Assembly: GCA_036004365.1 (NCBI GenBank) | Contig: DASYRN010000030.1 | Coordinates: 705-64,704, forward strand | Reading direction: 5' to 3' | Source: Candidatus Binatia bacterium | GTDB lineage: Bacteria; Desulfobacterota; Binatia; UBA9968 | DNA: 64,000 nucleotides | In this document: positions 14,315 through 58,317 of the stretch, piece by piece | Position numbering within the stretch: position 1 is the stretch's first letter | Layout: each line of letters opens with the position of its first letter | Position numbers and translations under genes: made by a program | The notes under the pieces: generated by a model | What the model saw: the letters and a program-made list of their open reading frames with translations, nothing else | Databases searched by the model: none | What the model was told of the DNA's origin: nothing

Positions 14315-15820
14315 ATGAGCCTGCGCCAGCAACAGATTGGGGTTTTTCTGGGTACTGTTGTGGTTATTTTCGGTATCTTTGCCGCGGGGCTCTGGCTGAT
14401 CGCCCAACGCCTTACGGCCGCGGCGACGTTGCAAACCGCGCTCGTCATGGCGCGCCAGGTTGAGATCGCATTGGCGGATAGTCTCCAGCAACGGTCGGTC
14501 AAATCCTCCCGAGCAGGCACTTCCTTCTGGGGCTTTTTGGGCAACCTTTTTCCCGGCAAGGCAGCGGGCAGGCCGGCGGCTTCTCTTCCTCAGTCCGAAG
14601 TTAAAGGCTTAATGCAGGCTTATGTGGCCCGCAGCGGCAGCATCGAAGCCATGTGGGTTCTCAATCCCGAGGGAAAGGTTCTATACAGCTCTTTCGGACA
14701 GGAGGGAATCCGACTCGGCGAAGATCCGTCTTGGCAGGAGCGTTTACGGGGGGATGGTCCCATAGTAACCACGCGCCATGAAGGGAAGGCCACCTACTAC
14801 GATGTGCTCGTTCCCCTACAAATGCCGAAAGGAGTTCAAGGGCCTGGCGGGCTTCGGCTGTGGATTAATCCGGCGGATTGGACCGAACTGTTGTCCGGCC
14901 TTTGGCACGAGCTCACGTTTTTGTTTGTCCTTGGCGGGGCGGTGGCTCTATTGAGCGCTTTCTTGACCACCGCTCTCTATACCCGGCGCTTTCGTCTCAT
15001 CAGCGAGGCGTTGCAGGAAGCTGAGGCCGGGACTTACCAAGCGCGTCCTCGATACTTTGGTCAAGACGAAGTCGGGAAGAGCTTAGATCTCATCGATCGC
15101 CTGGTCATGAAACAGCGTGGTGCGTCAGAATCCCCGAAACCGTTGCAACGGTTGGCCATGGCGGCGCGGGCATTAGCTCACGAAGTTAGGACTCCTCTCA
15201 ATGCCCTGGCCATCCATCTTGAGCTTCTGCGTAAAACCTCTGACCCATCCCGTTCCCCCGGGTCGGCTGACAGCGAGCAACGTTCCCTTGGTGCTCTGGA
15301 AGCCGGTATTCGCCAAGTGGACCAATTGGTACGTGACTTTGCCGATTACACTGCGCCCGTTACGATAGAACCTCAGTCTCTCGATCTATCTCAAGTACTC
15401 GATGCGAGTCTCGAGGTGGTGAAAGCCCAGTGTTCGGCTCAAAAAATTACCCTCACTAAGAATCTCCCGAGCCCGTTGTGGATCAAGGGTGACGATACTC
15501 GGCTAAGGCAGGCCTTCGACAACCTGTTGTGCAACGCAATAGAGGCGCAACCCAACGGAGGCGCGATTTGGGTTAACGGTCATAAGAACGGCAGCAGGCT
15601 GATTTTGGAATTTGGTGATTCGGGCCCGGGTCTTCCTCTTGAGCGGCGTACCCATCTGTTCGAGTTTGGTAAAACTACCAAGCCTGGGGGTAGCGGAATC
15701 GGTCTCCCTTTGATCCAAATCATAGTCGAGGCGCATGGGGGGACTCTGGAGTACGAAACGAACGATGAATCCGTTGGCGGCTCTACTTTTCGGATGACGC
15801 TGCCTCTGGATAGAAATTAG
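14315..15820 (+). CDS. Sensor histidine kinase (membrane, HisKA + HATPase_c)
   Basis: N-terminal TM segment, H-box HEVRTPLNALAIHLELL, and N/G boxes (CNAIEAQPNGG; GSGIGLPLIQ). Confidence 0.8.
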   Translation: MSLRQQQIGVFLGTVVVIFGIFAAGLWLIAQRLTAAATLQTALVMARQVEIALADSLQQRSVKSSRAGTSFWGFLGNLFPGKAAGRPAASLPQSEVKGLMQAYVARSGSIEAMWVLNPEGKVLYSSFGQEGIRLGEDPSWQERLRGDGPIVTTRHEGKATYYDVLVPLQMPKGVQGPGGLRLWINPADWTELLSGLWHELTFLFVLGGAVALLSAFLTTALYTRRFRLISEALQEAEAGTYQARPRYFGQDEVGKSLDLIDRLVMKQRGASESPKPLQRLAMAARALAHEVRTPLNALAIHLELLRKTSDPSRSPGSADSEQRSLGALEAGIRQVDQLVRDFADYTAPVTIEPQSLDLSQVLDASLEVVKAQCSAQKITLTKNLPSPLWIKGDDTRLRQAFDNLLCNAIEAQPNGGAIWVNGHKNGSRLILEFGDSGPGLPLERRTHLFEFGKTTKPGGSGIGLPLIQIIVEAHGGTLEYETNDESVGGSTFRMTLPLDRN

Positions 15821-15821
15821 T

Positions 15822-17174
15822 ATGGCGCGTCCGAGAGTCAATGTGCTTGTCGTGGACGACGATCCGGCTACCAGAGACGGCCTGACTGAACTTTTGAATG
15901 GTTGGGGATATGCAGCTTCGGCGGCAGCTGACGCCTCAAGCGCGCTTAAGATCTGTCACAAGGAATTACCGCAGGCCATGGTGACTGATTTGATGATGCC
16001 GGGGATGGACGGCTTACAATTCGTGCAAGCGCTGAAGGAACGGGTGCGAGAGGTTGCAGTGATCATTCTGACCGGCCAAGCGACCATAGAGACCGCCGTA
16101 CAAGCGATCAAGCTTGGCGCCTATGACTATCTCACGAAGCCGTTGGAGCCGCAAAAACTGAAGGACGTATTAGAAAAAGGACTCCGTCAAGCGCGGCTAG
16201 CGCGAGAAGCCACAGTGCTGCGTCAAAAATTGGAATCGCCTCTGGGGTCCTATGGAGAATTGGTCGGAAAGTCGCCTGGCATGCGCCAGCTCTACCAGCG
16301 TATTAGCCAGGTTGCGGCGACTGATGCACCAGTGCTTGTCAGTGGTGAGAGCGGGACGGGCAAGGAGCTGGTAGCCCGGACGCTTCATGATCTGTCGCCG
16401 ATCAGGGATGGGCCTTTTTTGCCTCTCAATTGCGCCGCAATCCCGCCTACTTTGATGGAGAGCGAGCTCTTCGGGCATGAGAAAGGGGCGTTTACGAACG
16501 CGACCGAACGGAGGAAGGGCTGCTTCGAACAGACAGATGGAGGAACTCTGTTTCTGGATGAGATCACCGAGATGGCCGCCGAGGTACAGGCTAAATTCCT
16601 CCGCGTCATAGAAGAGGGGCAGGTGCGCCGCATCGGGTCCGACTCTAGCGTGTCCGTGTCGGTCAGAGTCGTAACGGCAACCAATCGTGAGCCTGCGGCG
16701 GCTGTTAAGGAAGGAAAATTAAGGCAGGATCTCTATTATCGCCTAAACGTGTTTCATTTAGAATTGCCGCCGCTGCGGGAACGTCAGGATGACATTCCGC
16801 TGTTGGCGCGTTATTTCCTGGAAACATTCGCCGCTAAGTATCAGCGGGAGCCTTTACCATGGGCCACGGATTTTGTTGCTTCTCTTCAAGCCCATTCCTG
16901 GCCCGGCAATGTGCGCGAGTTGCGCAACGCCATGGAACGTTTGGCTGTCCTAGCTTCCGGTCCCAATCTGACTGCGGATGATGTCCAGCAATTTTGCCTC
17001 AGCGCTGTTTTTAGCGATAAGGCTGAGAGCCCGATGTCCCTAGCGGAGGCCGAGCGAGAGGCGATCCAAAGAGCGCTGGCGGCGACTGGCGGCAACAAAA
17101 CTCAGGCTGCCCGGATTTTGGGCATCACCCCTAAAACCTTGAACGCTAAAATGGCCCTTTATCGCAGCAAGTAA
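15822..17174 (+). CDS. Sigma-54-dependent response regulator (NtrC/Fis family: REC + AAA sigma-54 interaction + HTH)
   Basis: REC domain (VLVVDDDP ... D54-like), GESGTGKE Walker A, ESELFGHEKGAFTNA (GAFTGA motif), and a C-terminal Fis-type HTH (GNKTQAARILGI). Confidence 0.9.
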   Translation: MARPRVNVLVVDDDPATRDGLTELLNGWGYAASAAADASSALKICHKELPQAMVTDLMMPGMDGLQFVQALKERVREVAVIILTGQATIETAVQAIKLGAYDYLTKPLEPQKLKDVLEKGLRQARLAREATVLRQKLESPLGSYGELVGKSPGMRQLYQRISQVAATDAPVLVSGESGTGKELVARTLHDLSPIRDGPFLPLNCAAIPPTLMESELFGHEKGAFTNATERRKGCFEQTDGGTLFLDEITEMAAEVQAKFLRVIEEGQVRRIGSDSSVSVSVRVVTATNREPAAAVKEGKLRQDLYYRLNVFHLELPPLRERQDDIPLLARYFLETFAAKYQREPLPWATDFVASLQAHSWPGNVRELRNAMERLAVLASGPNLTADDVQQFCLSAVFSDKAESPMSLAEAEREAIQRALAATGGNKTQAARILGITPKTLNAKMALYRSK

Positions 17175-17272: not shown

Positions 17273-17349
17273 CCTTTGCCGGATCGGCCACAGAGCCTAG
17301 TCGACCGAAGGTTATGGAGTCCGCGTATAAAATCCAGGAGGAGGATGTC

Positions 17350-17667
17350 GTGAAATCGAATCACTGTGCCCGGATTCTGGCCATATTGAATGCCATGTTG
17401 ATTTGCTTCTCCAGCGCCTCTGTCGAAGCAGGACAAAGCAAGGAAGAAACAAAGCAGGCTGAAGAACAAGCGACTTCTAACGCGAGCAGCAATGAGGTCG
17501 AGAACAGGAACACTCAGTGGTCGGCAGATCCCGAGCGAGGCTGGGTGCGCGCTGATGAGCGCCCCGATCTCCATGATCAAGGTGAGTCCGTCGGGAAGGC
17601 AAATCCTAGCAAGGGAAAACAGAAGGGTAACCCAAAGAGCAAACCGAGTGATGCATCAACCAAATAA
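17350..17667 (+). CDS. Small secreted low-complexity (K/S/E-rich) protein; start uncertain (GTG 17350 or ATG 17314)
   Basis: GGAGGAGGA RBS 4 nt before the GTG. The N-terminus VKSNHCARILAILNAMLICFSSASVEA is a signal peptide. The tool's 17251 start overlaps the sigma-54 promoter. Confidence 0.35.
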   Translation: MKSNHCARILAILNAMLICFSSASVEAGQSKEETKQAEEQATSNASSNEVENRNTQWSADPERGWVRADERPDLHDQGESVGKANPSKGKQKGNPKSKPSDASTK

Positions 17668-17715
17668 CCCGAGGAACATCAAGGGAGCTAATGAGAGAAA
17701 AGGAGGTATGAAAAA

Positions 17716-18069
17716 ATGGACGGGAATCGAAAATTCATGAGTAGGACTGCTGGGGTTTTGCTTGGAGCAGCGCTTTTTCTTACAGGTTGCGCTGGTGGAC
17801 CCCTCACCACGCGCGAAAAAGGGGCCGGGATTGGTACTCTGGGAGGAGCCGCTGCTGGCGGAATCATCGGTAGCGCGGTCGGACGTCCGGCGGCGGGCGC
17901 TCTGATCGGTGGAGCGCTGGGTCTAGGTGCTGGGGCGCTTGTCGGGGACCAATTGCAAGGCCAGGAGATCCAGAACGAGCGCCAGGATCACGAGATTCGA
18001 AGGAACCAGGCCGAGCTTAACCGCCAGCGGCAGGAAATGGACCGCTTAAGACGGCAAGGGGAGTATTAA
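17716..18069 (+). CDS. Glycine-zipper lipoprotein with C-terminal coiled-coil tail
   Basis: AGGAGG RBS. Lipobox LTGC. G-x3-G glycine-zipper run (GIGTLGGAAAGGIIGSAVG...). C-terminal RRNQAELNRQRQEMDRLRRQ. Confidence 0.55.
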   Translation: MDGNRKFMSRTAGVLLGAALFLTGCAGGPLTTREKGAGIGTLGGAAAGGIIGSAVGRPAAGALIGGALGLGAGALVGDQLQGQEIQNERQDHEIRRNQAELNRQRQEMDRLRRQGEY

Positions 18070-18098
18070 CCGAAATCTCATCGAAAGGAGACCTTGAC

Positions 18099-18329
18099 AT
18101 GAAAAGATCTGCTCTGACCTTGATCCTTGCGACTGTTGGCCTGTGGGGATGCAGTCCACAGTTCTGGGGAGGTGCCGCGACCGGAGCTCTGGCGACGGGC
18201 GCCGGTTATGAAATTCAGGCGAACCGTCAGATGAACAAGCTGGAAGACGATTACAGGAGTGGGAGGATTGATCGTCGGGAATACGAGGTCCGCAAAAGTC
18301 AAATTGAGAAGGGTTCGATCATTTATTAG
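18099..18329 (+). CDS. Small lipoprotein (lipobox LWGC)
   Basis: RBS AAAGGAG. Signal peptide plus Cys. Small glycine-rich segment. Confidence 0.4.
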   Translation: MKRSALTLILATVGLWGCSPQFWGGAATGALATGAGYEIQANRQMNKLEDDYRSGRIDRREYEVRKSQIEKGSIIY

Positions 18330-18359
18330 AGAAACATAAACCGGAAGGAGGTAAAAGCG

Positions 18360-18659
18360 ATGAGAGAGAAAGTCTTATGGTTTGTAAGCGGAACAGTTGT
18401 CTCCTTTTTGGTGTTTCTGTTTTTAGGCGGGCTCTATACGATCACGCCGCCGAATGGGCCTGTGGATACCGCGTACAAGATGAACCGGATAACAGGAAGG
18501 GTATGGATGGTTAAAACCTACACGAAGCAGGTGGGACCGATTCGGGTCGTTACGGCCCGGCAGGCGGACGTCGAGAAGACCAAGGAACTCAAGGAGTCCG
18601 ATATCCCGGCGGTAGCGATGCAGGATGAACAGTTAGCGTCGCGCAGCCGGCGTAGGTAA
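18360..18659 (+). CDS. Small single-TM membrane protein, hypothetical
   Basis: RBS GGAAGGAGG. N-terminal TM segment (LWFVSGTVVSFLVFLFLGG). Confidence 0.4.
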   Translation: MREKVLWFVSGTVVSFLVFLFLGGLYTITPPNGPVDTAYKMNRITGRVWMVKTYTKQVGPIRVVTARQADVEKTKELKESDIPAVAMQDEQLASRSRRR

Positions 18660-18735
18660 GGTGGCGCGAAGCAACAACGGCGCACGCACAAAGGCGCTAA
18701 CCGTCACTGATTTTAGAATGAAAGGAGGTTGGTTT

Positions 18736-19062
18736 ATGAGGAAAACTTGGTTCATACCTGTTTTGGCTGTTTTAATGTTAACCGTGGTCGGCTGTTCGCG
18801 CCCACTCACCCAGAGAGAGGAGGGTGGCCTGATCGGAGGTTTCATTGGTGCGGGTAGCGGCGCGATCATCGGCAGCACCGTCGGGCATGCGGCCGCTGGC
18901 GCAGCTATCGGCGGACCGATTGGACTCATCGCGGGTGCCCTCATTGGCGACCAGATGATGAGCCAGGCGAGTTACACGCAACGCAGCGACTCTAATCAAG
19001 CCGAATTAGAACGGCTGAGAAGAGAAAACAGACGCTTGCGAGAGCAGCGGGCAGAGTGGTAG
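18736..19062 (+). CDS. Glycine-zipper lipoprotein, paralog of the 17716..18069 gene
   Basis: RBS AAAGGAGG before the ATG at 18736. Lipobox VVGCS. Glycine zipper (GGLIGGFIGAGSGAIIGSTVG...). C-terminal ELERLRRENRRLREQ parallels the paralog. Confidence 0.55.
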   Translation: MRKTWFIPVLAVLMLTVVGCSRPLTQREEGGLIGGFIGAGSGAIIGSTVGHAAAGAAIGGPIGLIAGALIGDQMMSQASYTQRSDSNQAELERLRRENRRLREQRAEW

Positions 19063-19312
19063 CGGGGTTACGGCTCCGTTGCGAAACGTGTATAGTAGAG
19101 AGAAGCAGGGGAGCCTGCTCCTCGGCGCGAGCCAAGGGGCCTCTGCTTGTCTCTTTCAGAGGCCGCCAATCTCTTAGTTTCACTTCCCTCGAGGCACTTC
19201 TTCCGAGGAACCAAACTTCTTTACGTAGAATCTACTTGGAATTGACTTAGCCAACCTTTTACGCATATTCTCTCTTCCGCCGGATTTCAAATATTCACTC
19301 GAGGAGGGGAAT

Positions 19313-20320
19313 ATGAAGGTCATCGACGCCGACGGACACATTGTCGAGAGAGATCGCGATATCCGAGCCCATCTGCCCGAGCCGTACTGCAACCGCCGCG
19401 GTCCCCTTATTCCGTCGGACGGATTGGACACCAGCATGGGAGGGCGCCTCGGCGGGCTTGAAGATAACGACCTACCGACCCGCCTCAGAGATATGGATCA
19501 AGAGGGAATCGATGTCTCGGTTCTTTTTCCTACCAGTAGCTTCTCCCTGATCAGCTTCGTCGAAAGTAACTATGCCATTGCCTACGCGCGCGCCTACAAC
19601 AATTTCATTTCCGATATCTGCAGGCAGAGCCCTCGTCTCAAAGGGATCGCGCTGGTCCCTTTTCAGGATGTGAGAGCCGCCGTGGATGAGGTCGACCGGG
19701 CCATCACCAAGCTTGGACTAGCCGCGGTCGCTGTGGCTTCCCAGGGAATGAAGGAGCATTTGGGCTCAGAGAAATTTTGGCCGATCTATGATGAGATCCA
19801 GCGCCTCAATGTCCCCTTTTGTGTCCATAACCGGCGCCAGGGGCCTGCCGGAGAGCAGCGCTTCGACAGTTTTCTCTACATGCATACGATTGGCCGGCCC
19901 GTGGAGACGTTTATTCAGTTCGCGGGGCTCATCTACGGCGGCGTAGCGGAGAGATTTGCTAAGCTGAGAATCGGCTTCCTCGAGTGTGGGGTCGGTTGGG
20001 TTCCCTACTGGATGGAGCGCATGGATGAGGAATGGGAAAAGCGGGGAAAGCTGGAAGCCCCTTTGTGCAAGAGGAAGCCCAGCGAATATGTCATCCACGG
20101 CAATTGGTTTTTCGCTGCAGAGCCGGAAGAGGGAATGCTTCCCTACGTCATCGAGCGCATCGGAGAGGATAAAATTCTCTTCGCCTCTGACTATCCCCAC
20201 TGGGATGGGATCTTTCCCCACGTGGTTTCCACTATTCGAGGGAGGAAAGACATTTCGGAGAGCGCTAAAGAAAAGCTCTTAGGCCGCAACGCCGAAAGGT
20301 TTTACGGCTGGGCACAGTGA
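19313..20320 (+). CDS. Amidohydrolase-2 family metal-dependent hydrolase (ACMSD-like TIM barrel)
   Basis: MKVIDADGHI N-terminus. C-terminal ASDYPHWDG motif. Confidence 0.8.
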   Translation: MKVIDADGHIVERDRDIRAHLPEPYCNRRGPLIPSDGLDTSMGGRLGGLEDNDLPTRLRDMDQEGIDVSVLFPTSSFSLISFVESNYAIAYARAYNNFISDICRQSPRLKGIALVPFQDVRAAVDEVDRAITKLGLAAVAVASQGMKEHLGSEKFWPIYDEIQRLNVPFCVHNRRQGPAGEQRFDSFLYMHTIGRPVETFIQFAGLIYGGVAERFAKLRIGFLECGVGWVPYWMERMDEEWEKRGKLEAPLCKRKPSEYVIHGNWFFAAEPEEGMLPYVIERIGEDKILFASDYPHWDGIFPHVVSTIRGRKDISESAKEKLLGRNAERFYGWAQ

Positions 20321-20347
20321 GAAAGAACGGGCGCTGTAGAGGCGAAC

Positions 20348-20923
20348 TTACGGTACCTTCCATAGATAGATAAAATGCGTGTGATACCAGCCGCCGTCCA
20401 TTTTTTCCACTTTAATGGGAATCCAGCCGTCGATGCCAAAATCATGGGAGACCACACGGGAGCCGGATCTTAACTGCCGATCAAAGATCGGCCGAAGTTT
20501 GGCGTTGAATTCGGGAAGCATGTACAAGGTCACCACGCTTGCGGGCGAGACGTCGACGGTGAGGGCATCCTGCTCGCGGAACTCTACTAAGTGATCGACT
20601 CCCTCATCCTTTGCCTTTGCCCGAGAGCGCTGGACTAAATCAGGATCGATCTCAACCCCTACCGCCTTAACTCCGTATTTCTTTGCCGCCCTGATGACGA
20701 CCCGCCCGTCGCCACTTCCCAAGTCGTAAAGAACATCTCCCCTTTTGACCTCCGCTAGCTCAAGCATGCGGTCAACCACTTCGGGAGGAGTCGGGACAAA
20801 TGGGACTTCACCCGCAGTCCAAATCGTGGAACAGCCGGCGAATAATAGAAGGGCTAAGACCGTGGTCAGCTTGTAGTTTTCAGTTTCGAGTTTCAGGTTT
20901 CTAGTTTCTGGCACCGAAGTCAT
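20348..20923 (-). CDS. Class I SAM-dependent methyltransferase; putative lipoprotein, N-terminus uncertain
   Basis: Motif I VLYDLGSGDGRVVIRAAKKYG. The predicted 5' end is encoded by a heptamer tandem repeat. Confidence 0.7.
   Translation of the reverse strand: MTSVPETRNLKLETENYKLTTVLALLLFAGCSTIWTAGEVPFVPTPPEVVDRMLELAEVKRGDVLYDLGSGDGRVVIRAAKKYGVKAVGVEIDPDLVQRSRAKAKDEGVDHLVEFREQDALTVDVSPASVVTLYMLPEFNAKLRPIFDRQLRSGSRVVSHDFGIDGWIPIKVEKMDGGWYHTHFIYLWKVP
20875..20911. repeat. Heptamer tandem repeat (AGTTTCN) x5 overlapping the predicted 5' end of the methyltransferase gene
   Basis: AGTTTTC AGTTTCG AGTTTCA GGTTTCT AGTTTCT. Related AGTTTC motifs occur at 40711..40778. Confidence 0.6.
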
Positions 20924-21100
20924 TTATACTTTGTTCCTGTGACGCGGTCTTTCGCAACATCAATGTGGGAAACGACTTCCCCAACTGAAGTCTTCGCCGG
21001 ATTAGCATACCATCCGGCGCCTCACAAGGTCTTGACACGGGCACGCCACCTGTTTATTTAGGTGGCAACTCGTAACGCGGGTCTAAGAAAGGAGCGAGCT

Positions 21101-21817
21101 ATGGCGATCTGGGATGATGTTCTTACACAACGCGACAAAGAGGTTTTCTCGAAGTCCGGTTACGGCAAGCGCGCGGGATTTGGTCAGCGGCCGGCTGTCT
21201 TGGTCATCGACATGAATTACAACTTCGTCGGCGACAAGCCTGAACCGATTCTCAAGTCGATCGAGCGATTCCGTAATAGCTGCGGCGAAGAGGGATGGGA
21301 AGGGGTCTACCGCATTCGTGAGCTTCTCGAGGAGGCGCGGAAGAAGAAACTGCCGAGCTTTTACACAACGGGCCATGAGGGTGGGAGCTCCATGTCTTTC
21401 GGTCGCTGGCACGGGAAAAACAGCCGGGGCTCGGAGGACATGAGTGGTGCCTGGGCGAAGGGAAACGAAATCATAGCGGAGATAGCGCCGCAAGACGGTG
21501 ATGTGGTCATCCGGAAGCAAAAGCCAAGCCCGTTTTTTGGAACTCCGCTGATCAGCATGCTCAATGAAGTGCATGCCGATACCGTGCTGGTCACGGGCTG
21601 CACCACCAGCGGCTGCGTTCGAGCAGGCGTGATCGATGCCTTCTCTTATAATTTTCGCGTCTGCGTTGTCGAGGAGTGTGTTTTCGACCGTGGTCAAGCC
21701 TCGCATAAGATCAACCTCTTCGACATGAACGCAAAATACGCCGACGTCATTTCTTTGAAAGAGGCCGTAGAATACATCCAAAGCCTGCCGGATAATCTCT
21801 ACGCCCCAGCGCTGTAA
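21101..21817 (+). CDS. Isochorismatase-family hydrolase (N-carbamoylsarcosine amidase-like)
   Basis: AVLVIDMNYNF ... VLVTGCTTSGCVRAGVIDA. RBS AAAGGAG before the ATG at 21101. Confidence 0.65.
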   Translation: MAIWDDVLTQRDKEVFSKSGYGKRAGFGQRPAVLVIDMNYNFVGDKPEPILKSIERFRNSCGEEGWEGVYRIRELLEEARKKKLPSFYTTGHEGGSSMSFGRWHGKNSRGSEDMSGAWAKGNEIIAEIAPQDGDVVIRKQKPSPFFGTPLISMLNEVHADTVLVTGCTTSGCVRAGVIDAFSYNFRVCVVEECVFDRGQASHKINLFDMNAKYADVISLKEAVEYIQSLPDNLYAPAL

Positions 21818-21844
21818 TAAATTTTGAGTTGTGAGTGCTGAATC

Positions 21845-22948
21845 TTGATCACGGCTCATGCCGACGTCGTCGGAAGCCTGCTTAGGCCGCCGGAGCTTCT
21901 TGAGGCCCAAGACCAACTCGCGGCCGGGACCATCAGTCCCCAGCAGTTCAAGAGGATCGAAGATCGCGCCGTGGACAGCGCCATCGCCTTGCAGGAAGAA
22001 GTCAACCTCCAAGTCGTGACCGATGGCGAGATGCGCCGGCAGTCTTTTCAAAGCCAGATGACCGCTGCGGTCAGCGGCTTTGGCGAATTCACCCTGGACG
22101 CCTTTCTCTGGGGCCATTGGTACGACGAAGAAGGAATTCACAGAACACCCCGGCCGCGTCGATTAGGCGTCGTCGCCAAGCTCGTCCGCCAGCACTACCT
22201 TTCAGTGGATGAATTCGTCTACCTGAAAACTAAAACCAACCACACAGCTAAAATCACGCTGCCGAGCCCTGGGCTGTGGGTTAACTTCTGGTCTGCCAAA
22301 CATTCGAAGGCCGCTTACGCGACGCTTGATAGTTTTCTTGCCGACATCGTCCAAATCTTACGGGATGAGATCAAAGAATTGATTCGACTCGGTGCCACTT
22401 ACATTCAATTAGACGCGCCTCACTATGGTCTCCTGCTTGACCCCAAGACGCGACGCTTTTATGAAAGGCAGGGCTGGCGCTTGGACCAGTGGCTTTCACT
22501 GGGAGTCGAATTAGACAACGCCGTGATGGAGGGCTTTCCTGGGGTCACGTTCGGCTTTCATGTTTGACGCGGGAATCAAGGCAGCCGGTGGCTGTCCGAA
22601 GGCGGTTACGAACCTGTCAGTCGGCAGCTGTTTCGTAGGGTGAATGCGCAGCGGCTCCTGCTTGAATACGATGATGGCCGCTCTGGCTCGTTTGAGGCGC
22701 TTAAGGATGTACCGGAAGATAAGTTCGTGGTGTTGGGGTTGGTGACGACCAAGAGGGCGCGCTTGGAAAATATGGAGGAACTCAAGCAGAAGGTATCCGA
22801 GGCCGGCCGCTATGTTCCGTTGGAGAGGTTGGGGATCAGCCCCCAGTGCGGCTTTGCCTCCTCTATCATCGGGAACAACATCTCTTTCGACGACCAGCGC
22901 TACAAGCTGAGACTTGTCGTAGACATCGCGCAGCAGATCTGGGGTTGA
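21845..22948 (+). CDS. Cobalamin-independent methionine synthase-like (MetE C-terminal-domain homolog, Meth_synt_2) methyltransferase. It has one in-frame TGA at 22565-22567, at the conserved H-x-C zinc-ligand position. It is therefore either a candidate selenoprotein or a pseudogene.
   Basis: N-terminus VVGSLLRP ... QEEVNLQVVTDGEMRR and C-terminus SPQCGFAS (like NPDCGLKT) match MetE-like proteins. The two ORFs 21845..22567 and 22640..22948 are in the same frame. They are separated only by a single TGA, read as GFHV-TGA-RGN. Confidence 0.5.
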
Positions 22949-22972: not shown

Positions 22973-23653
22973 ATGACGAAGAAAATTTTCTCGTGGCTAG
23001 GGAAAGAATTTGTGACGCTTTGCTCTGAGGCTCAATCGGGTGCGACAGCGACGGAGCAAACACGGGATCTCCTCCTGGGCTTTGATGGCGAGCTCAAGGG
23101 GATGGGTCTTTCAGTAGAGAATACAGTCCGCACCCGGCTCTGGGGCAGAGATCGAGAAAGCAGGGATCTGGGAGGGACGGAAAGGTTCAAGATCCTATCG
23201 GGCAGGGCTCGGTCAGCGAGTTCCAGCTACATCTCGCCCCTCCATTTCGATTCCGGCGCTCGCGTCGCTTTGGACCTTCTCGCTATGAGACCCTCGCAAT
23301 CGGATGCTGAGAAAATTCTTAAGGAATATGACCCACCCATTGTTCCCCTGCGGTATCTGATCTACGATTCTGTCCTCTTTCTCTCCGGGGTGACGACCGT
23401 TCTTCCCGGGCTGGAAGATCAGGTGGCCAACATTCTGCCACGGATCTCAGCTTCTCTTACCGATGCGGGCAGCTCCTGGGATCGAGTGGTCAACGTTTCC
23501 TTCTATCTCCATAGAAGCCAGAAGGCCGAAACACTCCGAGAGTTATTCCGAAAAACGGTCCAAGCTAAGATTCCGAAATTGGAATACTCTTGGGTGGACG
23601 GATACTCCGCGGAGGGGAAGCTGATTGAGATCGAGACTACCGCTAAGTGCTAA
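22973..23653 (+). CDS. RidA/YjgF-like (endoribonuclease L-PSP fold) family protein, tentative
   Basis: Two YjgF-like segments (NTVRTRLW ...; VVNVSFYL...). Confidence 0.4.
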   Translation: MTKKIFSWLGKEFVTLCSEAQSGATATEQTRDLLLGFDGELKGMGLSVENTVRTRLWGRDRESRDLGGTERFKILSGRARSASSSYISPLHFDSGARVALDLLAMRPSQSDAEKILKEYDPPIVPLRYLIYDSVLFLSGVTTVLPGLEDQVANILPRISASLTDAGSSWDRVVNVSFYLHRSQKAETLRELFRKTVQAKIPKLEYSWVDGYSAEGKLIEIETTAKC

Positions 23654-24405
23654 GTCAGTCCCTGTCGCAGAGAGCGCACGAGCAGAACTACTCCGATCAC
23701 AAACAGTACAAGAAGCAGACCGCGATTGAAAGTTTGCTGGTTGACACGGTCCTGGACCTTCAGTCCGACGTAAAAACCCAGCAGGACAAACAAAGTGACC
23801 TCCAACGATAGGGTCAAGGTTGACCGATTGAAAAGGTTCCACGTTGACACGGCAACGAGCTGGCTTACTTTGGTGACGATGAAGATCGTCGAAATGGATT
23901 TGATAAAATCCATCTTCTCTAGTTTGAGACCGTACAGATAAACCGCGAGCGCCGGGCCGGCCGCATTTGTCATCCCATTCAAAAACCCCCCGATCACGCC
24001 CACCGCAGGGGAAAGAATGCCTTCGGCACGGGGCGAAATTTCGAAGTCAAAATGAAAAAGGGTCGACGAAACGAAGATGAGCACCATCATGCCCAGGCAG
24101 AAATTGAGGATCCAGAGAGGTAGGGTAGCGAGAAACTTCGTCCCCAAGAAGACGCCGATGACGGTTAACAAGAGTAACCAGGCAAATCGCCGGAGCACCG
24201 CAACGGGAAAATGGCCGCGAAAGACCTGAGCGATGTCCATGACGATGTTGGGAATAATTAAGATAGTGATGGCAGTGCGGATGTCCAACAGAAGCGCAAC
24301 CATCGGGGTGGCGATCAGCGGAAACCCCAGGCCGGTCGTCCCTTTGACGAAAGCAGCGAGCAGCAGGGCTGCGGCGACGAGGATCGTTGTCTGATCGTAG
24401 GGCAC
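23650..24405 (-). CDS. TauE/SafE-family sulfite/anion exporter membrane protein
   Basis: About 250 aa with 7-8 TM segments. Duplicated GxGGG-like motifs (GTTGLGFPLIATP; GVIGGFLNGMTNAAG). Confidence 0.75.
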   Translation of the reverse strand: MPYDQTTILVAAALLLAAFVKGTTGLGFPLIATPMVALLLDIRTAITILIIPNIVMDIAQVFRGHFPVAVLRRFAWLLLLTVIGVFLGTKFLATLPLWILNFCLGMMVLIFVSSTLFHFDFEISPRAEGILSPAVGVIGGFLNGMTNAAGPALAVYLYGLKLEKMDFIKSISTIFIVTKVSQLVAVSTWNLFNRSTLTLSLEVTLFVLLGFYVGLKVQDRVNQQTFNRGLLLVLFVIGVVLLVRSLRQGLT

Positions 24406-24443: not shown

Positions 24444-24896
24444 GTGAGATTTCTCCGTCGAACTCCGGTTCGAACCTTTCTTCTCTCTCCTCTTGTCACG
24501 CTCGCGTGGGAGTCTTTCTTAAACCGAGGCGGCTTGCGCATCAATCTCGTTTTTCTGCCGCTCATGCTCTGGGGTTATCTGCAGTACCGCCTGTGCGGAC
24601 TCTACAGAACAAAGCACGGTGGCGGCGGCCCCGGCCTGGAAAAGCCGCCCGTGCGGCTCGTCTCCGACGGACCCTACGCCTACAGCCGCAATCCGATGTA
24701 TCTTGGGCATGTTTTGTTCCTGATCGGCTTGGCTCTCACCCTCCAATCTCTCTTGGCAGCTTTGATCACGGTCGCAACAGCTCTTTGGTTTCATCGCCGT
24801 GTGCTGGAGGATGAAAGAAACTTGGCTCAATCTTTCGGTGAGCCGTACCTCCAGTACCGAGCCAAAGTGGCGCGCTGGGTTCCGGGTCTTTTTTGA
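24444..24896 (+). CDS. Isoprenylcysteine carboxyl methyltransferase (ICMT/PEMT) family membrane methyltransferase
   Basis: RNPMYLG motif and C-terminal EE...L..FG..Y..Y signature. Confidence 0.6.
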   Translation: MRFLRRTPVRTFLLSPLVTLAWESFLNRGGLRINLVFLPLMLWGYLQYRLCGLYRTKHGGGGPGLEKPPVRLVSDGPYAYSRNPMYLGHVLFLIGLALTLQSLLAALITVATALWFHRRVLEDERNLAQSFGEPYLQYRAKVARWVPGLF

Positions 24897-34195: not shown

Positions 34196-34329
34196 GCTCT
34201 CTGCGGCTAGGTCGAAGACGGCTCAAAGCCTTGGACCTTAAGAATTTGAAATTCCAGGGGACTTGAGGCAGGCAACCTCGCTTCAACGAAGTTTGACTTG
34301 CCGTCGCCCATTTGTTAGTTCTCTCTTTA

Positions 34330-34426
34330 AGCTAGGGGTGTTCGCCTGGCGGACTGAGAACCTGAGGCGGAAGTTATCGGGTAACCCTCTGAACCTGACC
34401 CGGATAGTGCCGGCGTAGGGAAGCGT
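34330..34426 (+). ncRNA. TPP (thiamine pyrophosphate, THI-box) riboswitch
   Basis: Conserved GGGGTG ... CTGAGA ... ACCC ... GAACCTGACCCGGATAGTGCCGGCGTAGGGAA. Followed by the hairpin ACCGTATTCC...GGATACGGT plus TTTTTT (about 34470-34517) as a terminator expression platform, directly upstream of thiS. Confidence 0.85.
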
Positions 34427-34523
34427 GAGAGTCGCGGTTCCTTGTCGTTTCGCGACGGGACGAGCTTAAGACCGTATTCCCTGGCCACTGGATGTGGTCA
34501 AGTCGGATACGGTTTTTTAATGC

Positions 34524-34724
34524 ATGATAGTCCAGATCAACGGTGAAAAGAGAGAGATCCAAGCAGCTCTGAGCGTTGCGCAACTCCTCGAACAGCTGGG
34601 GATTCGACCCGGCAGAGTCGTTGTCGAGCTTAACCGAGATATCGTTTCCCGGGATGCTTTTCAGGATAAATTTTTGAAGGAAGGGGACACCGTGGAGATC
34701 GTTCATTTTGTCGGGGGAGGATAA
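34524..34724 (+). CDS. thiS: Sulfur carrier protein ThiS
   Basis: 66 aa ending in GG ([10 protein letters not shown]). Immediately precedes thiG. Confidence 0.8.
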
Positions 34725-34725
34725 A

Positions 34726-35499
34726 ATGGAAGATGTTTTTAAGCTGGCGGAAAGGAGCTACAAATCGCGCCTGATCGTCGGGACCGGAAAATACAAAGAT
34801 TTCGGTGAGACGCAAAAAGCCATCGAGGCCTCGGGAGCCGAGATTGTTACGGTAGCAGTGCGCAGGGTCAACATTACGGATCCCAACAAAGAAAATCTTC
34901 TCGATTACATCGACCCCAAAAGATATAGGATCCTGCCCAACACGGCGGGCTGCTACACCGCGGACGAGGCGGTTCGCACCTGCCGCCTCGCTCGCGAGGC
35001 CGGGGTAGGAAACATGGTAAAGCTTGAGGTCATTGGTGACGAAAGAACCCTCTTTCCCGACATAGCAGCCACTCTTGACGCAGCGCGAATCCTTATAAAG
35101 GAAGGTTTCGTTGTCCTTCCCTATATCACTGATGATCCGGTGGCGGCAAAAAAACTTGAGCAGATGGGATGCGCCGCCGTGATGCCGCTGGCGGCTCCCA
35201 TCGGCTCCGGTTTGGGGATTCGAAATCCGTACAATATTCGCATAATTCTAGAACACGCCAGAGTGCCAGTCATTGTCGATGCGGGCGTGGGAACTGCTTC
35301 CGACGCGTCCATTGCAATGGAGATGGGCTGCGACGGTGTCCTGATGAATACAGCCATCGCCGGCGCCAAGGATCCGATCCTGATGGCCGAGGCCATGCGG
35401 CTTGCGGTGGACGCAGGAAGAAAGGCTTTTCTGGCCGGGCGCGTTCCTAAAAAGCTCTACGCTATGGCCTCCAGTCCGCTTGAGGGCTTTTTAGGCTAG
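34726..35499 (+). CDS. thiG: Thiazole synthase
   Basis: LIVGTGKY ... typical ThiG. RBS GGGGGAGGA. Confidence 0.9.
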
Positions 35500-35505
35500 C
35501 TTCGT

Positions 35506-36150
35506 TTGCGATTGCGCTCTCCCCATTTTGACCTCTACCTTGTAACCGATCGCGCTCAAACAGGCGGAAGGGATCTCCTTTGGATCCTTGAGCAGGCCTT
35601 GGAAGCCGGCGTGACAGCCGTTCAGCTGAGGGAGAAGGATCTAAGCGGCCGGGAACTTCTTATCCTGGCTGAAAAGGCAAAAAAACTCTGCCAGCGCTAT
35701 CGTACCAGCCTGTTCATCAATGACCGCATTGATGTCGCATTGGAAGTCGATGCGGAAGGAGTGCAGCTCGGAACCTCTTCCATGCCGATTGAGGCTGCGC
35801 GACGACTCCTTGGAGAAGAAAAGCTGATCGGCGTTTCTACCCATTCGGTCAGAGAGGCCGAGGCCGCCGAACAGGCAGGCGCGGACTTTATCCTTTTTGG
35901 ACCGATCTATTTTACTCCCTCCAAGGCTGTGTACGGGGAACCCCAAGGGCTTGGTCCTCTAAAAAACGTGGTAGAAAAAGTCTCTCTTCCTGTTTATGCT
36001 ATCGGCGGAATAAGAGAGGAGAATGCAGCCGAGGTCAAGGAAACCGGTATCAGAGGGGTTGCTCTGATTTCTGCCGTGCTGGGTGCAGCGGAGCCTGGGG
36101 AAGCAACCCGTAGGATTCTCGCCGCCGTACGGAATGAAGCCGATGAGTGA
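35506..36150 (+). CDS. thiE: Thiamine-phosphate synthase
   Basis: TMP-TENI fold motifs (VQLREKD ... IGVSTHS ... ADFILFGP). Confidence 0.85.
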   Translation: MRLRSPHFDLYLVTDRAQTGGRDLLWILEQALEAGVTAVQLREKDLSGRELLILAEKAKKLCQRYRTSLFINDRIDVALEVDAEGVQLGTSSMPIEAARRLLGEEKLIGVSTHSVREAEAAEQAGADFILFGPIYFTPSKAVYGEPQGLGPLKNVVEKVSLPVYAIGGIREENAAEVKETGIRGVALISAVLGAAEPGEATRRILAAVRNEADE

Positions 36151-36448: not shown

Positions 36449-36524
<76 letters not shown>

Positions 36525-38084: not shown

Positions 38085-39392
38085 TCAAAGGTAAGCCAAA
38101 AACCGCCCCGGATTGAGAATGCCATGAGGATCGAATTGGCGCTTGATCTCGCGCATTAGTGATATGCTGGGAGGAGGTTGGCCCCAAACATCGATGCCCT
38201 CTTTTAACCCAGGAGGTGCCGCCGCTATCGCCGCATGCCCTCTATGGTTTTCTGCCAGGGCAGCAAGTCTGGGAAACCACTCGATGCTTGATGGATCGGC
38301 ATCCAGTAGCAGCCAGATTGTCCCGGTGGCTGCGTGAGCAATGTAGCGAATAGGCTTTTCGGACATCCCCCACTGGTTAACCACAGACAATACGTCCGCC
38401 ACTGATCCAGAGGGAGTGGTAATGCGATAGAGAATCCCCTCACCATTCATCCCAAAATTCTCGATCTCTTCCCAGAGCCGCTGGTGGGACTCATCCCGGA
38501 ATTCTTCAGAGGTAAGTCCAACTTGCTGGGCAATTTCTTTCAGATCACGAACATGTCTCGTGACAGCTTCCTCAAACCCCTCAACCCAAGTCAGGACAGA
38601 AGTTGTTTGCCGACTGTAACCGGGAGCTTTGGCTGCGTCGGGGCTAAGGATGGTTACGGCCGCCGGAAGCAGCGGCGAAGAATGTAGCTTGTCAACAAAG
38701 CACGTACACTGTTCCAACGAACCTGAAACGAAGAAGGAGGCCGCGCGTTCTGGGAGTGGCGCCACCCTAAACGTCAGTTCGGTTATGATTCCGAGTGTTC
38801 CCAGCGAGCCAACAAAGAGCTTGCACACATCATAACCGGCCACGTTTTTCACCACCTTGCCGCCGGCCTTGATCTGTTCGCCCGTCGCAAGGACCATTTT
38901 CATCCCGATGACGAGATCGCGCAGACCGCCGTGCGCCATCCGTCGGGGTCCGTTGCTGTTTGCGGCTACCACGCCACCGATTGTCGCCCGTGAAGGGTGA
39001 GGCGGATCGACTGGTAAGAACTGCCGCCGCTGGCGCAGATTCTCCTGAAAAGAGCCGACCCTCATCCCAGCTTCGGCCGTAGCTGTGAGGTTGGCGGCGT
39101 CATGCTCGATAAGACTGTTCAATTTCTCCAGCCTGATTACGACATCGACCCGGCGCGGGAGATTGCCTAATGCCATGGAGGTTCCTCCGCCCCACGGAAT
39201 GACTGAGGCTTGAGCCTCAGCGCAGATGCGTAGGATCGAGCTCGCCTGCTCCGGCGCAGAGGGAAGACAAAGAAGGGTTGGAACTTTGCCGTCTACGGCG
39301 TAAGAGGCCAGGGAGGATGGGTTGCATTCTACTGATCCAGCGCCGAGATCGCTTGCTAATCTGGCGCTTAACGCTTCAATAGAAAGTTTCAT
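38085..39392 (-). CDS. glcE: Glycolate oxidase FAD-binding subunit
   Basis: FAD_binding_4 (PCMH) pattern. Adjacent to glcF and glcD. Confidence 0.7.
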   Translation of the reverse strand: MKLSIEALSARLASDLGAGSVECNPSSLASYAVDGKVPTLLCLPSAPEQASSILRICAEAQASVIPWGGGTSMALGNLPRRVDVVIRLEKLNSLIEHDAANLTATAEAGMRVGSFQENLRQRRQFLPVDPPHPSRATIGGVVAANSNGPRRMAHGGLRDLVIGMKMVLATGEQIKAGGKVVKNVAGYDVCKLFVGSLGTLGIITELTFRVAPLPERAASFFVSGSLEQCTCFVDKLHSSPLLPAAVTILSPDAAKAPGYSRQTTSVLTWVEGFEEAVTRHVRDLKEIAQQVGLTSEEFRDESHQRLWEEIENFGMNGEGILYRITTPSGSVADVLSVVNQWGMSEKPIRYIAHAATGTIWLLLDADPSSIEWFPRLAALAENHRGHAAIAAAPPGLKEGIDVWGQPPPSISLMREIKRQFDPHGILNPGRFLAYL

Positions 39393-40705: not shown

Positions 40706-40710
40706 CGGCC

Positions 40711-40778
40711 CCCCAGTTTCTGGTCTCTAGTTTCCAGTCCTAACTAGCAACGAGAAATTTGGAACTAGAAACAAGATA
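40711..40778. repeat. AT-rich AGTTTC-containing element with imperfect inverted repeat (CTAGTTTCC ... GGAACTAGAAAC) between glcD and glcF
   Basis: Occupies the whole glcD-glcF intergenic spacer. Confidence 0.5.
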
Positions 40779-40780
40779 TT

Positions 40781-44552: not shown

Positions 44553-44897
44553 TTTTCTACGACTCCAATCTTGCTTCCTCTGCTCTAGAGGCTGCCCTGT
44601 TCTCCGATCTGGAGCGGCCGCGCCGGGTCGGTTACTGTGCGCCGGTGGGAGCGTCGAAAGGATAGCGGATGCTACAGCGCGGATGAAGCGCCAGTCAAGT
44701 CTAAAGTAGGGGGTCCCTCCTCTGCTGCTAGAACGCCTCCCTTGTCCCCTGAATTTTTCTCACCTGTATCTGGTTCAGAGGATGTAAGGGGGTGTCAATA
44801 GGGATTGACGCGAATCTGCAAAATATATATAAGCATGTGGCGCAATGTTGCATGCCAGTTACGGATATTACATACCAGTTACGAAAGGAGAAGGACC

Positions 44898-46109: not shown

Positions 46110-46160
46110 CCGCTCGGTGGCGCATCCCAGCTATCCCGCCAGCCATCCGCCACATGGCGG

Positions 46161-48937: not shown

Positions 48938-48939
48938 TG

Positions 48940-49059
48940 CCGTGGCGAGAAGTGTCGCATCGCTGCGTTCTCGGTCGTCGGGCATCCTCAACGTACTAAC
49001 CACGTACGCTTCCGGTGCCCTCCTCTCTCGGGCCTTGCGCTGCTCGCTTCTCGCCACGG
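48940..49059 (+). repeat. Copy 1 of an about 120-bp repeated element with 13-bp terminal inverted repeats (CCGTGGCGAGAAG ... CTTCTCGCCACGG)
   Basis: Near-identical (about 85-90 %) to 50609..50729. Lies directly after the dctM stop. Confidence 0.7.
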
Positions 49060-49261
49060 CAAATGGCTGGACTTGGCGGAAGTCACACTTCGAATTGTAG
49101 AGACATATGTGGCCTTTTGTTTTGCACGTCATTCCCATGAAAGCGGGAATCCGGAGTCTCTCTCATACCTGGACTCCCGGCTTCAGCCTTAGGCTGATCC
49201 GTCCGAAGCCCTGTGGCGGATCCGCGGGAGTGACTATCTCTCTCTCCACCTACAGGAAACA

Positions 49262-57374: not shown

Positions 57375-57418
57375 GCTCGGCCGTCTCGAGGTTATTTTTT
57401 TCGCGTGTCATAAGAGTC

Positions 57419-58312: not shown

Positions 58313-58317
58313 CGTCT

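Follow-up and report, generated by a model that had tools for sequence, protein, structure and literature searches.

This report concerns a gene at positions 21845-22948 (+ strand) of a 64,000-nucleotide stretch of the Candidatus Binatia contig DASYRN010000030.1; this whole stretch is referred to below as the window. The gene resembles the catalytic domain of the cobalamin-independent methionine synthase MetE and is interrupted once, by an in-frame TGA that is almost certainly a real selenocysteine (Sec) codon in a widespread selenoprotein family. On comparative evidence we put the probability that 21845-22948 is one functional gene, encoding a selenoprotein of 367 residues in the short single-domain MetE family, at about 0.9. 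The gene comprises the following parts, with the basis for each in brackets.

21845-22564 (+): codons 1-240 of the MetE-like gene, TTG start (open reading frame (ORF) list, translation, PF01717 match, alignment)
22559-22561 (+): His239 (CAT), first metal ligand of the predicted H-x-U motif (alignment)
22565-22567 (+): in-frame UGA, codon 241, predicted to be read as Sec (column of an invariant zinc-ligand Cys)
22568-22948 (+): codons 242-367 and the TGA stop (22946-22948) (open frame of 126 codons); contains the conserved motif RGNQGSRWL
22580-22596 (+): putative Sec insertion sequence (SECIS) hairpin, with 5' arm GGCAGCC (22580-22586), loop GGU (22587-22589) and 3' arm GGCUGUC (22590-22596)
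22664-22666 (+): Glu274 (GAA), metal ligand (alignment)
22847-22849 (+): Cys335 (TGC), metal ligand in SPQCGF (alignment)

According to the ORF list and its translations, the TTG-start ORF 21845-22567 and the ORF 22640-22948 are in the same frame and form a single run of 368 codons, in which the TGA at 22565-22567 is the sole internal stop (context T-F-G-F-H-V-[TGA]-R-G-N-Q-G-S-R-W-L). Readthrough, with Cys put at the stop, gives a product of 367 residues whose N-terminus (MITxHADVVGSLLRP) aligns from codon 1 onward with the start of full-length homologues. Gene callers report two ORFs instead, of 240 residues and of 102 residues (from a GTG at 22640), each of which matches PF01717, and the 5' fragment is deposited at NCBI as a 240-residue 'hypothetical protein' (HEV8341260.1, VGR30_02695) on an 81,680-bp contig. 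Codons 242-265, which separate the TGA from the GTG start of the second ORF, carry invariant residues, which argues that they are translated.

The joined product matches PF01717 (Meth_synt_2, 'cobalamin-independent synthase, catalytic domain') with 68.8 bits against a cut-off of 21 (E 6.6e-19), over profile positions 5-323 of 324, and its sequence matches the Listeria protein of PDB entry 1YPX with an E value of 1.3e-50. Foldseek searches with an AlphaFold2 model (pLDDT 83.2, pTM 0.87) gave 1YPX as the best match, together with the C-terminal barrels of MetE from T. maritima, C. albicans and N. crassa and a short Shewanella enzyme (3RPD), with E values of 1e-18 to 1e-13 and TM scores of about 0.7-0.83; UroD and MtaA-type methyltransferases came next. 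The predicted structure is thus the (beta-alpha)8 barrel of the MetE C-terminal domain. Full-length homologues number in the thousands and the best 120 are 63-74% identical to the window protein; in a column alignment all 120 of these carry Cys at the position of the TGA. Residue H239, codon 241, E274 and C335 align with H652, C654, E676 and C737 of Neurospora MetE (4ZTX) and correspond to H641, C643, E665 and C726 of E. coli MetE. H239, E274 and C335 are invariant across 302 sequences, and it is the Cys of the H-x-C motif that is replaced by UGA.

An earlier note on this DNA, made from the letters of the sequence, had proposed that two same-frame ORFs separated only by this TGA make up a MetE-like protein of about 367 residues, that the TGA falls on the ligand Cys of H-x-C and that the second Cys ligand is intact downstream in SPQCGF. 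The reading frame, the end-to-end PF01717 match, the match to 1YPX, the MetE-fold model, the alignment of codon 241 with C654 of 4ZTX and with Cys in 120/120 homologues, and the presence of Cys335 bear out each of these points.

Conservation of the TGA codon and of the hairpin behind it

DNA was scanned with a pattern in which the TGA is fixed within F-H-x-TGA-R-G-N-Q-x-S-R-W, namely TTYCAYNTNTGAMGNGGNAAYCARNNNWSNMGNTGG. This pattern carries ~46 bits, and random matches are by our own estimate expected to number far below one. Matches to it lie in at least 119 species-representative genomes and in 120 or more metagenome contigs. The counts of Sec-form loci given below (239, 217, 182 and 194) are drawn from the matches listed and are therefore lower bounds on the family. 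Among these matches the carriers span about 14 phyla, and the genomes, almost all of which are metagenome-assembled genomes (MAGs), are distributed as follows.

Poribacteria: 21 TGA-carrier genomes
Dehalococcoidia: 20
Acidobacteriota in the wide sense: 18
Binatia: 16
'Deltaproteobacteria' / Desulfobacterota: 12
Methylomirabilota / NC10: 7
Other Chloroflexota: 4
Verrucomicrobiota: 3
Latescibacterota, Gemmatimonadales, Tectomicrobia and Nitrospinota: 2 each
Planctomycetota, Bacteroidota and Gammaproteobacteria: 1 each
Unclassified: 7

Behind the TGA the frame runs for exactly 126 codons in 169 of 217 loci and for 125-139 in almost every one, SPQCGF occurs in the downstream product of 193/217, and codon 241 is TGA in all 182 unique Sec-form genes. 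Retention of the TGA in orthologues was the key test set by the earlier note, and the Sec reading passes it in this large set, with the downstream frame intact. The Sec forms are mutually identical at a median of 65% and down to 49%, which indicates an old, diverse family rather than a single clone. Sec and Cys forms are interleaved: for 16 Sec forms the nearest neighbour is a Cys form, and a crude tree built by the unweighted pair group method with arithmetic mean, which is indicative only, requires at least 18 changes between the two states. A MAG of Candidatus Udaeobacter sp. (SMAG_U10962) carries two TGA-containing copies on different contigs (L015 and L082; L numbers denote our loci). In a search of 1.84 billion representative proteins the two best representatives stop exactly at residue 240 and the list consists mostly of fragments. 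The Cys-form DNA pattern had no match in viral contigs.

The hairpin at 22580-22596 has a folding energy of -10.5 kcal/mol and lies within codons G246-S-R-W-L-S251, its loop beginning 19 nt past the UGA. Across the family a core of 5 bp is invariant, the stem extends to as many as 7 bp and the loop reads G-[G/U]-U. Bacterial SECIS (bSECIS) elements are described as having a loop of 3-9 nt, a stem of 4-16 bp, a G in the first two loop positions (mostly G[G|U]), a distance of 16-37 nt from the UGA to the loop and a minimum free energy at or below -7.5 kcal/mol (PMC13188914). The window hairpin falls within these limits on all four counts, with its GGU loop, 7 bp stem, 19 nt spacing and -10.5 kcal/mol. 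The earlier note had described this hairpin with a GGU-containing loop, which is present, and with a bulged U, where ViennaRNA prefers a G.U pair and both readings are possible.

Codon choice within the hairpin differs from that elsewhere in the same genes. In the 182 unique Sec genes Ser247 is encoded by AGC in 179 and AGT in 3, as against a ratio of 69:31 at other invariant serines of AGY type. Arg248 is CGG in 148, CGT in 32 and AGG in 2, and never CGC or CGA, whereas other invariant arginines of these genes are CGC in 40% and CGA in 11%, and the nearby Arg242 is CGC in 102/182. The wobble base is C in 87% of Gly246 codons and G in 87% of Leu250 codons, against 51% in the control in each case, and these two bases pair with each other to close the 5-bp core. 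In 194 unique sequences this pair is C-G in 166, A-U in 7, G-C in 5, G-U in 3, U-G in 3 and U-A in 2, with 8 non-pairs; a set of 100 sequences gave CG 84, GC 5, AU 3, GU 2 and UG 2, with the core paired in 96-100%. The covariation score was reached by 0/500 shuffles, and sliding the partners collapses the pairing. At codon 251 (22595-22597) most Sec forms encode Ser (TCC/TCG) or Ala (GCC) and most Cys forms encode Val; an xCC codon at this position pairs with the GG of Gly246 and so lengthens the stem, and RNA structure thus seems to shape the protein sequence.

Ten distinct Cys-form genes provide a comparison. Arg248 is CGC in six of them and CGA in one, which implies loss of the loop GU, and the contrast for CGC (6/10 Cys forms against 0/194 Sec forms) has a Fisher p of 2e-9. 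The notion that AGC at Ser247 is specific to Sec forms was rejected, as the codon is AGC in 9/10 Cys forms as well; discrimination comes only from the AGC/AGT ratio and from the codon for Arg248. The nearest Cys relatives, L240 (P0001, 74% identical) and L251 (P0002, 69%), retain a hairpin that resembles a SECIS and has GGU or GUU as its loop, which suggests either recent conversion from Sec to Cys or a pre-adapted sequence of the kind that gave rise to Sec forms. As judged from these comparisons, a Sec gene is marked by its G[G/U]U loop and its tuned wobble pairing, not by the hairpin alone. The earlier note's account of the hairpin is to be corrected in one respect, in that the stem itself is shared by many Cys forms. 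The ready-made stem in the S-R-W-L codons may account for the interleaving of Sec and Cys forms.

Decoding machinery and alternative explanations

Evidence that carriers of the gene decode Sec comes from the Poribacteria. In 17 of them a same-strand selD follows the gene at a distance of 0.4-2.2 kb, scores 349 bits against a TIGR00476 cut-off of 125 and contains an in-frame TGA of its own (...LAKTCG-U-AAKVSP...), which indicates that these Poribacteria decode Sec. The loci with a Sec-containing selD are L005, L014, L024, L037, L043, L045-L047, L052, L072, L075, L079, L080, L085, L098, L104 and L107.

Several observations weigh against reading codon 241 of the window as Sec. Pfam searches of about 36 ORFs of the 64 kb window found neither SelA, SelB or SelD nor any other selenoprotein gene, nor did ARAGORN find a tRNA-Sec there; it likewise found none in the 239 Sec loci. 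Other TGA-interrupted ORF pairs in the window turned out to be only adjacent ordinary genes (for example LeuA_dimer beside a hydrolase). Rfam gave no SECIS match, either for the window at the gathering threshold or for 22400-22800 at the E-value threshold, where the only hits were chance matches to Prion_pknot and mir-298 that are uninformative either way. The AGCC/GGCU stem follows for the most part from the invariant S-R-W-L codons, and most Cys forms have it as well. The hairpin folded on its own gives a z score of -2.3, but 40- and 66-nt contexts give -0.4 and -0.1, and a competing hairpin appears in the 66-nt fold. The last contrary signal, a weak one, concerns substitutions: a relative 96.7% identical to the window protein differs from it by 17 synonymous and 8 non-synonymous changes before the TGA and by 2 and 6 after it (Fisher p = 0.047), the latter being the pattern expected of relaxed selection, with n = 8 only after the TGA. 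Single-sequence thermodynamics was discarded as a stand-alone argument, since z is about 0 in the longer contexts, and comparative evidence was used in its place.

These substitutions bear most directly on the possibility that the window copy is a recent pseudogene, in which the Cys codon (TGC or TGT) mutated to TGA in this Binatia lineage to leave a decaying gene or a dead 240-residue fragment. Such a change requires a single base, the nearest syntenic relative (L251) has Cys, and both the 2:6 ratio and the lack of Sec machinery in the window would fit. Against this, at least 239 loci, spread over about 14 phyla, share this TGA and a full downstream frame, and the window protein keeps the family consensus at all 51 of the downstream columns that are at least 90% conserved, with every ligand retained; before the TGA it departs at 2/109. 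The six non-synonymous changes after the TGA all fall in variable columns and lead to residues that are common in the family, and purifying selection acts on the 5' part (17 synonymous against 8 non-synonymous changes), which would be pointless without the ligands E274 and C335. The loop and the wobble codons are of the Sec-form and not the Cys-form type, and both TGA and hairpin are unchanged in the 96.7% identical relative, which was recovered from two further samples. Three contigs that are 99.6-100% identical have no power for an analysis of non-synonymous to synonymous rates after the TGA. With column 241 masked, the nearest relatives of the window protein are Sec forms (75-78%), the best Cys form reaching 74%. 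By sequence comparison a pseudogene reading is excluded for the family as a whole by the conserved TGA and downstream frame, and for the window copy, where the earlier note had kept it as an alternative, we consider it improbable.

It is still less probable that the gene is split, with the TGA a true stop and the 240-residue and 102-residue (GTG 22640) polypeptides assembling into one barrel. Although gene callers annotate precisely these two ORFs and both match PF01717, the 24 codons between TGA and GTG, which encode the invariant R-G-N-Q-G-S-R-W-L, would go untranslated; the position of the first downstream start varies, with no conserved start or ribosome-binding requirement, and the supposed stop coincides exactly with a metal ligand and is followed by a hairpin whose signature fits SECIS. 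A similarly small probability attaches to reassignment or readthrough of UGA as Trp, Gly or Cys. Some lineages do reassign UGA, and under selenium shortage SelB can deliver Cys in place of Sec. TGA is, however, the ordinary stop of many window genes, which indicates a standard genetic code, as used by the carrier phyla in general. The UGA aligns only with Cys, the SECIS-type hairpin with its G[G/U]U loop is under selection, and a Sec-containing selD adjoins the gene in Poribacteria. Least probable of all is a sequencing or assembly error hiding a TGC or TGT codon, raised by the earlier note: the source is metagenome-assembled and one wrong base would be enough, but the identical 60-mer around the TGA occurs in two JGI samples (3300036861 and 3300036850), a Logan run (SRR11742962) and the NCBI MAG, independent assemblies that exclude such an error, all nine members of the 90% protein cluster of the window protein end at 240 or 244 residues, bar one 198-residue fragment at a contig end, and hundreds of other loci have the TGA.

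Weighing these points, we are highly confident, from the comparison of sequences, that the TGA-containing genes are a genuine selenoprotein family, and the window copy is, with slightly less confidence, very likely functional.

Gene neighbourhoods and the link to selenoneine clusters

The MetE-like gene of the window is surrounded by the following genes.

19313-20320 (+): Amidohydrolase_2 gene (Pfam)
20348-20923 (-): S-adenosylmethionine (SAM) methyltransferase gene (Pfam)
21062-21817 (+): isochorismatase-family gene, directly upstream (PF00857)
22973-23653 (+): downstream gene of 226 residues, C-terminal RidA/YjgF (Ribonuc_L-PSP) domain (PF01042)
23650-24405 (-): TauE/SafE-family anion permease, convergent (PF01925)
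24444-24896 (+): small PEMT/ICMT-like membrane methyltransferase (tblastn, 66% identity to the neighbour family)

ORFs within 4 kb were clustered across the 239 Sec loci and the recurrent families named. TauE/SafE is the commonest neighbour and lies directly downstream in 60/239 loci; the PEMT/ICMT family, whose representative matches PF04191 and PF04140, occurs in 37 loci, UbiD in 27 and the isochorismatase family, upstream of the Sec gene, in 22 as well as in the syntenic Cys-form locus L251. The gene order of 19313-20923, of Binatia type, is shared with L251, L136, L156, L175 and L262, and L251 is syntenic with 19313-22948. The RidA-like gene starts 24 nt past the stop of the MetE-like gene, and an exact copy with the same neighbours is present in independent contigs. 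Only its last ~80 residues match Ribonuc_L-PSP, and its N-terminal ~140 residues have no match in Pfam or NCBIfam.

Three arrangements recur. In the first (architecture A), egtD is followed by the Sec gene and senA, often then by a betaine-type ABC ATPase and an OpuAC-permease fusion, with gaps of 0-60 nt. It is found in NC10 (L007, L016, L049, L051 and L067), Tectomicrobia (L084), Thermoanaerobaculia (L081), Poribacteria (L059), Latescibacterota (L020, with two GT1 genes) and unclassified MAGs and contigs. The full series, egtD, the MetE-like gene with its TGA, senA, the ABC ATPase and the OpuAC-permease fusion, is seen in L007, L084, L112, L134 and other loci of this type. By analogy with betaine/ergothioneine-type (EgtUV-like) importers, the ABC ATPase/OpuAC pair may serve in the uptake of hercynine, ergothioneine or selenoneine. 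The sen, egtD and selD genes were called by NCBIfam cut-offs on scored representatives. Ten EgtB-like neighbours gave 502-535 bits with the SenA model (cut-off 420) and 330-357 with that for EgtB (cut-off 360); nine of these are beside Sec genes and one is 4 kb from the Cys-form gene of L252. The Methyltransf_33 neighbour is EgtD (381 bits against a cut-off of 291).

In the second arrangement (architecture B, Poribacteria) the order is Amidohydrolase_2, Sec gene, Sec-containing selD, GT1 and a gpsA-like gene. The GT1 representative is SenB (TIGR04348, 403 bits against 300), and as the selD of Poribacteria is mostly followed by a gene that passes as SenB, it is probably the SenC of a sen cluster. 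No mention of a Sec-containing SenC was found in the sen preprint (10.1101/2022.04.13.486033). The third arrangement (architecture C), that of the window, occurs in Binatia and 'delta' MAGs: an amidohydrolase_2 gene, a SAM methyltransferase on the opposite strand and an isochorismatase gene precede the Sec gene, behind which come, sometimes after a RidA-like gene, an opposite-strand TauE/SafE gene, a PEMT/ICMT-like gene and a pyridoxal phosphate enzyme of the threonine synthase family.

Among the matches listed, 33/239 Sec loci have a sen, egtD or selD gene at a distance of up to 4 kb; the count is 30/119 for species genomes and 18/78 for loci with at least 1.5 kb on both sides. Chance co-location is expected, by our estimate, to be under about 1% for single-copy genes. 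Poribacteria account for 18 of the 30 sen-linked genomes and so for few independent events, but the link recurs in other orders, in at least six phyla. The Cys-form loci have senA 4 kb away in 1/10, the other nine having unrelated neighbours. Proteins encoded next to sen genes share 62-65% identity with that of the window, and those of architecture A share about 71% with those of architecture B, which makes a common function plausible. Membership of the window gene itself in a sen cluster is opposed by the finding that tblastn detected no SenA, SenB, SelD or EgtD in the 64 kb.

The rest of the window has the following character. An ordinary thiamine operon occupies 34324-36150, with a thiamine pyrophosphate riboswitch (RF00059, 71.7 bits, 34324-34438), thiG (34708-35499) and thiE (35506-36150), and the only tRNA of the window, tRNA-Thr (CGU), is at 36449-36524. 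Three genes at 38085-42217 (-) resemble the GlcD/GlcE/GlcF arrangement of glycolate oxidase; they encode a protein with FAD_binding_4 and FAD-oxidase_C domains, a CCG-domain Fe-S protein and a second FAD_binding_4 protein. A DctP gene with a twin-arginine signal (44805-46109) precedes an ORF of 987 residues at 45974-48937 (+), which has two DctM matches and is apparently a fused membrane component of a tripartite ATP-independent periplasmic transporter; a 600-residue antisense ORF (47336-49138) that overlaps it is probably a shadow. A row of genes at 56388-60093 (+), encoding a MoxR AAA ATPase, a DUF58 protein and a BatA-like protein, forms an operon of the Bat/aerotolerance type. Finally, a pair encoding a histidine kinase and a sigma-54 response regulator (14315-17174) lies upstream of a run of five small genes at about 17300-19100 (+) (76-117 residues), two of which have a Gly-zipper (YMGG/Omp); the run is also noted in L256 (4342-6090).

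Related systems and proposed function

The closest relatives are the Cys-containing proteins of the 'cobalamin-independent methionine synthase II family' (PF01717; 1YPX; B. subtilis YxjG/YxjH; NF005085, NF004875), none of which has a defined substrate. Like the window protein they are of ~367 residues, and they share up to 74% identity with it, the same fold, the H-x-C...E...C ligands, RGNQGSRWL and sometimes the same neighbours; they differ in that the window gene encodes the first Cys ligand by UGA with a SECIS signature. NF005085 (PRK06520, 258.4 bits against a cut-off of 313) and NF004875 (PRK06233, 233.3 against 576) are the closest named families, and by the NCBI cut-offs the window protein is a member of neither. 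Canonical MetE (EC 2.1.1.14), as known from E. coli, T. maritima and fungi, shares the fold of its catalytic C-domain and the aligned zinc ligands His, Cys, Glu and Cys, and by analogy a metal-activated thiolate attack on a methyl donor is expected in both. The window protein is nevertheless a single domain of 367 residues, as against ~750 residues in two barrels, and falls far below the cut-offs of the canonical models (TIGR01371, 43.6 bits against 929.95; NF003556, 43.3 against 541). The N-terminal barrel of MetE helps to bind methyl-tetrahydropteroyl-triglutamate; as the window protein lacks this barrel, its methyl donor and acceptor may differ from those of MetE.

The hairpin can be compared with the fdhF-type bacterial SECIS and the bSECISearch consensus, with which it shares a position inside the coding region just past the UGA and a small G[G/U] loop, but its loop is only 3 nt and its stem 5-7 bp, the stem being largely dictated by an invariant protein motif. 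Sec in place of a metal-binding or alkyl-transfer Cys is known from formate dehydrogenase (Mo/W-Se), [NiFeSe] hydrogenase, the predicted metal-binding proteins MbdU, SaoB and SaoC, Sec forms of arsenite methyltransferase, and MduS (PMC13188914); as in the window family, Cys homologues dominate in these metal-ligand or methyltransferase selenoproteins, but none of those described there has the MetE/UroD fold or a site of the Zn(His)(Cys)(Glu)(Cys) type. The MtaA-like (Mlp) enzymes of type 1 MGCs (PMC10418091) belong to the same UroD/MetE superfamily and share zinc-dependent methyl transfer to thiols or selenols and an association with selenium use; unlike the window protein, they are corrinoid-dependent, occur in anaerobic Firmicutes and methanogens, belong to UroD/MtaA rather than Meth_synt_2 and are not described in that paper as selenoproteins at the zinc site. 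The selenoneine cluster senA-senB-senC, with or without egtD (Kayrouz et al., 10.1101/2022.04.13.486033), often lies, where it adjoins the TGA-containing MetE-like gene, 0-60 nt from it on the same strand, and the preprint mentions no MetE-like gene in the sen cluster.

The suggestion of the earlier note that the selenoprotein is novel appears justified. MetE, methionine synthase, homocysteine and PF01717 are absent as selenoprotein entries from the family table of a 2026 review (PMC13188914), and a MetE-type selenoprotein is likewise absent from the BSepDB paper, the GOS survey, the deep-Sep paper with its supplements and a 2022 review; a search of the full-text open-access literature for MetE, methionine synthase II or PF01717 as a selenoprotein returned nothing relevant. 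NCBIfam has no selenoprotein model for this family, its best models being those of ordinary short methionine synthase families, and no full-length U-containing product is among the best 120 database proteins, the databases holding only truncated halves. Because gene callers and NCBI split the gene into a 240-residue 'hypothetical' piece and a 102-residue piece, the family is invisible in protein databases. Decoding would be of the standard bacterial kind and the predicted fold is a known one; what appears to be new is Sec at a zinc-ligand position and the tie to selenoneine clusters.

Comparison with known systems allows a mechanism to be proposed for Sec insertion, for the binding of zinc by selenium and for the reaction. 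The hairpin at 22580-22596 would present its G-G-U loop to SelB carrying Sec-tRNA(Sec), so that UGA-241 is decoded as Sec, and the selenolate would then replace the first Cys of the His-x-Cys...Glu...Cys zinc site. By homology the zinc, held by His, Sec, Cys and a displaceable Glu, would activate a thiol or selenol substrate for alkyl (methyl) transfer, the bound thiolate or selenolate attacking an activated methyl group, a scheme taken from the enzymology of MetE. Selenium, as the softer and better donor, may lower the Lewis acidity of the zinc and leave the bound substrate more nucleophilic. Under oxidative stress MetE and its paralogue YxjG are known to be S-thiolated at their zinc-site cysteines, and since oxidised Sec is reduced more readily, the site may also recover more easily after oxidation.

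By analogy, the likeliest candidates for the substrate are (seleno)homocysteine and a selenol of the selenoneine pathway. In the first case the enzyme might methylate (seleno)homocysteine and so regenerate methionine and SAM beside SAM-hungry enzymes: EgtD consumes three SAM per hercynine, and two SAM-type methyltransferases are encoded near the MetE-like gene of the window. The ThrC-family enzyme of architecture C clusters might make the homocysteine. In the second case it might methylate or demethylate selenoneine, a selenosugar or selenide at selenium. A role in selenoneine metabolism could accordingly take either form, that of a Se-methyltransferase acting on selenoneine or a selenosugar or that of a (seleno)homocysteine methylase feeding the methylations of EgtD. 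The combined proposal, that this is an undescribed Sec family of at least 14 phyla, nearly all uncultured, in which Sec is a ligand of the catalytic zinc and which is a working part of selenoneine/hercynine metabolism, is tentative and somewhat doubtful as a whole.

Known prokaryotic selenoproteins are mostly thiol-redox enzymes. The present family has been hidden in hundreds of environmental genomes, including those of sponge-symbiont Poribacteria, Binatia, NC10, Dehalococcoidia and Acidobacteriota, and its predicted Sec in a methyl-transfer zinc site would offer a natural Sec/Cys pair for studying selenium at a Lewis-acid zinc-thiolate centre. The S-R-W-L codons supply most of the SECIS stem, so that the coding sequence seems pre-adapted for switching from Cys to Sec. 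The repeated position of the gene between egtD and senA, or beside selD/senC-senB, points to a fourth, unnoticed player in selenoneine metabolism, and a Zn-Se(Cys) catalytic site, if true, would be a new kind of selenoprotein metal centre.

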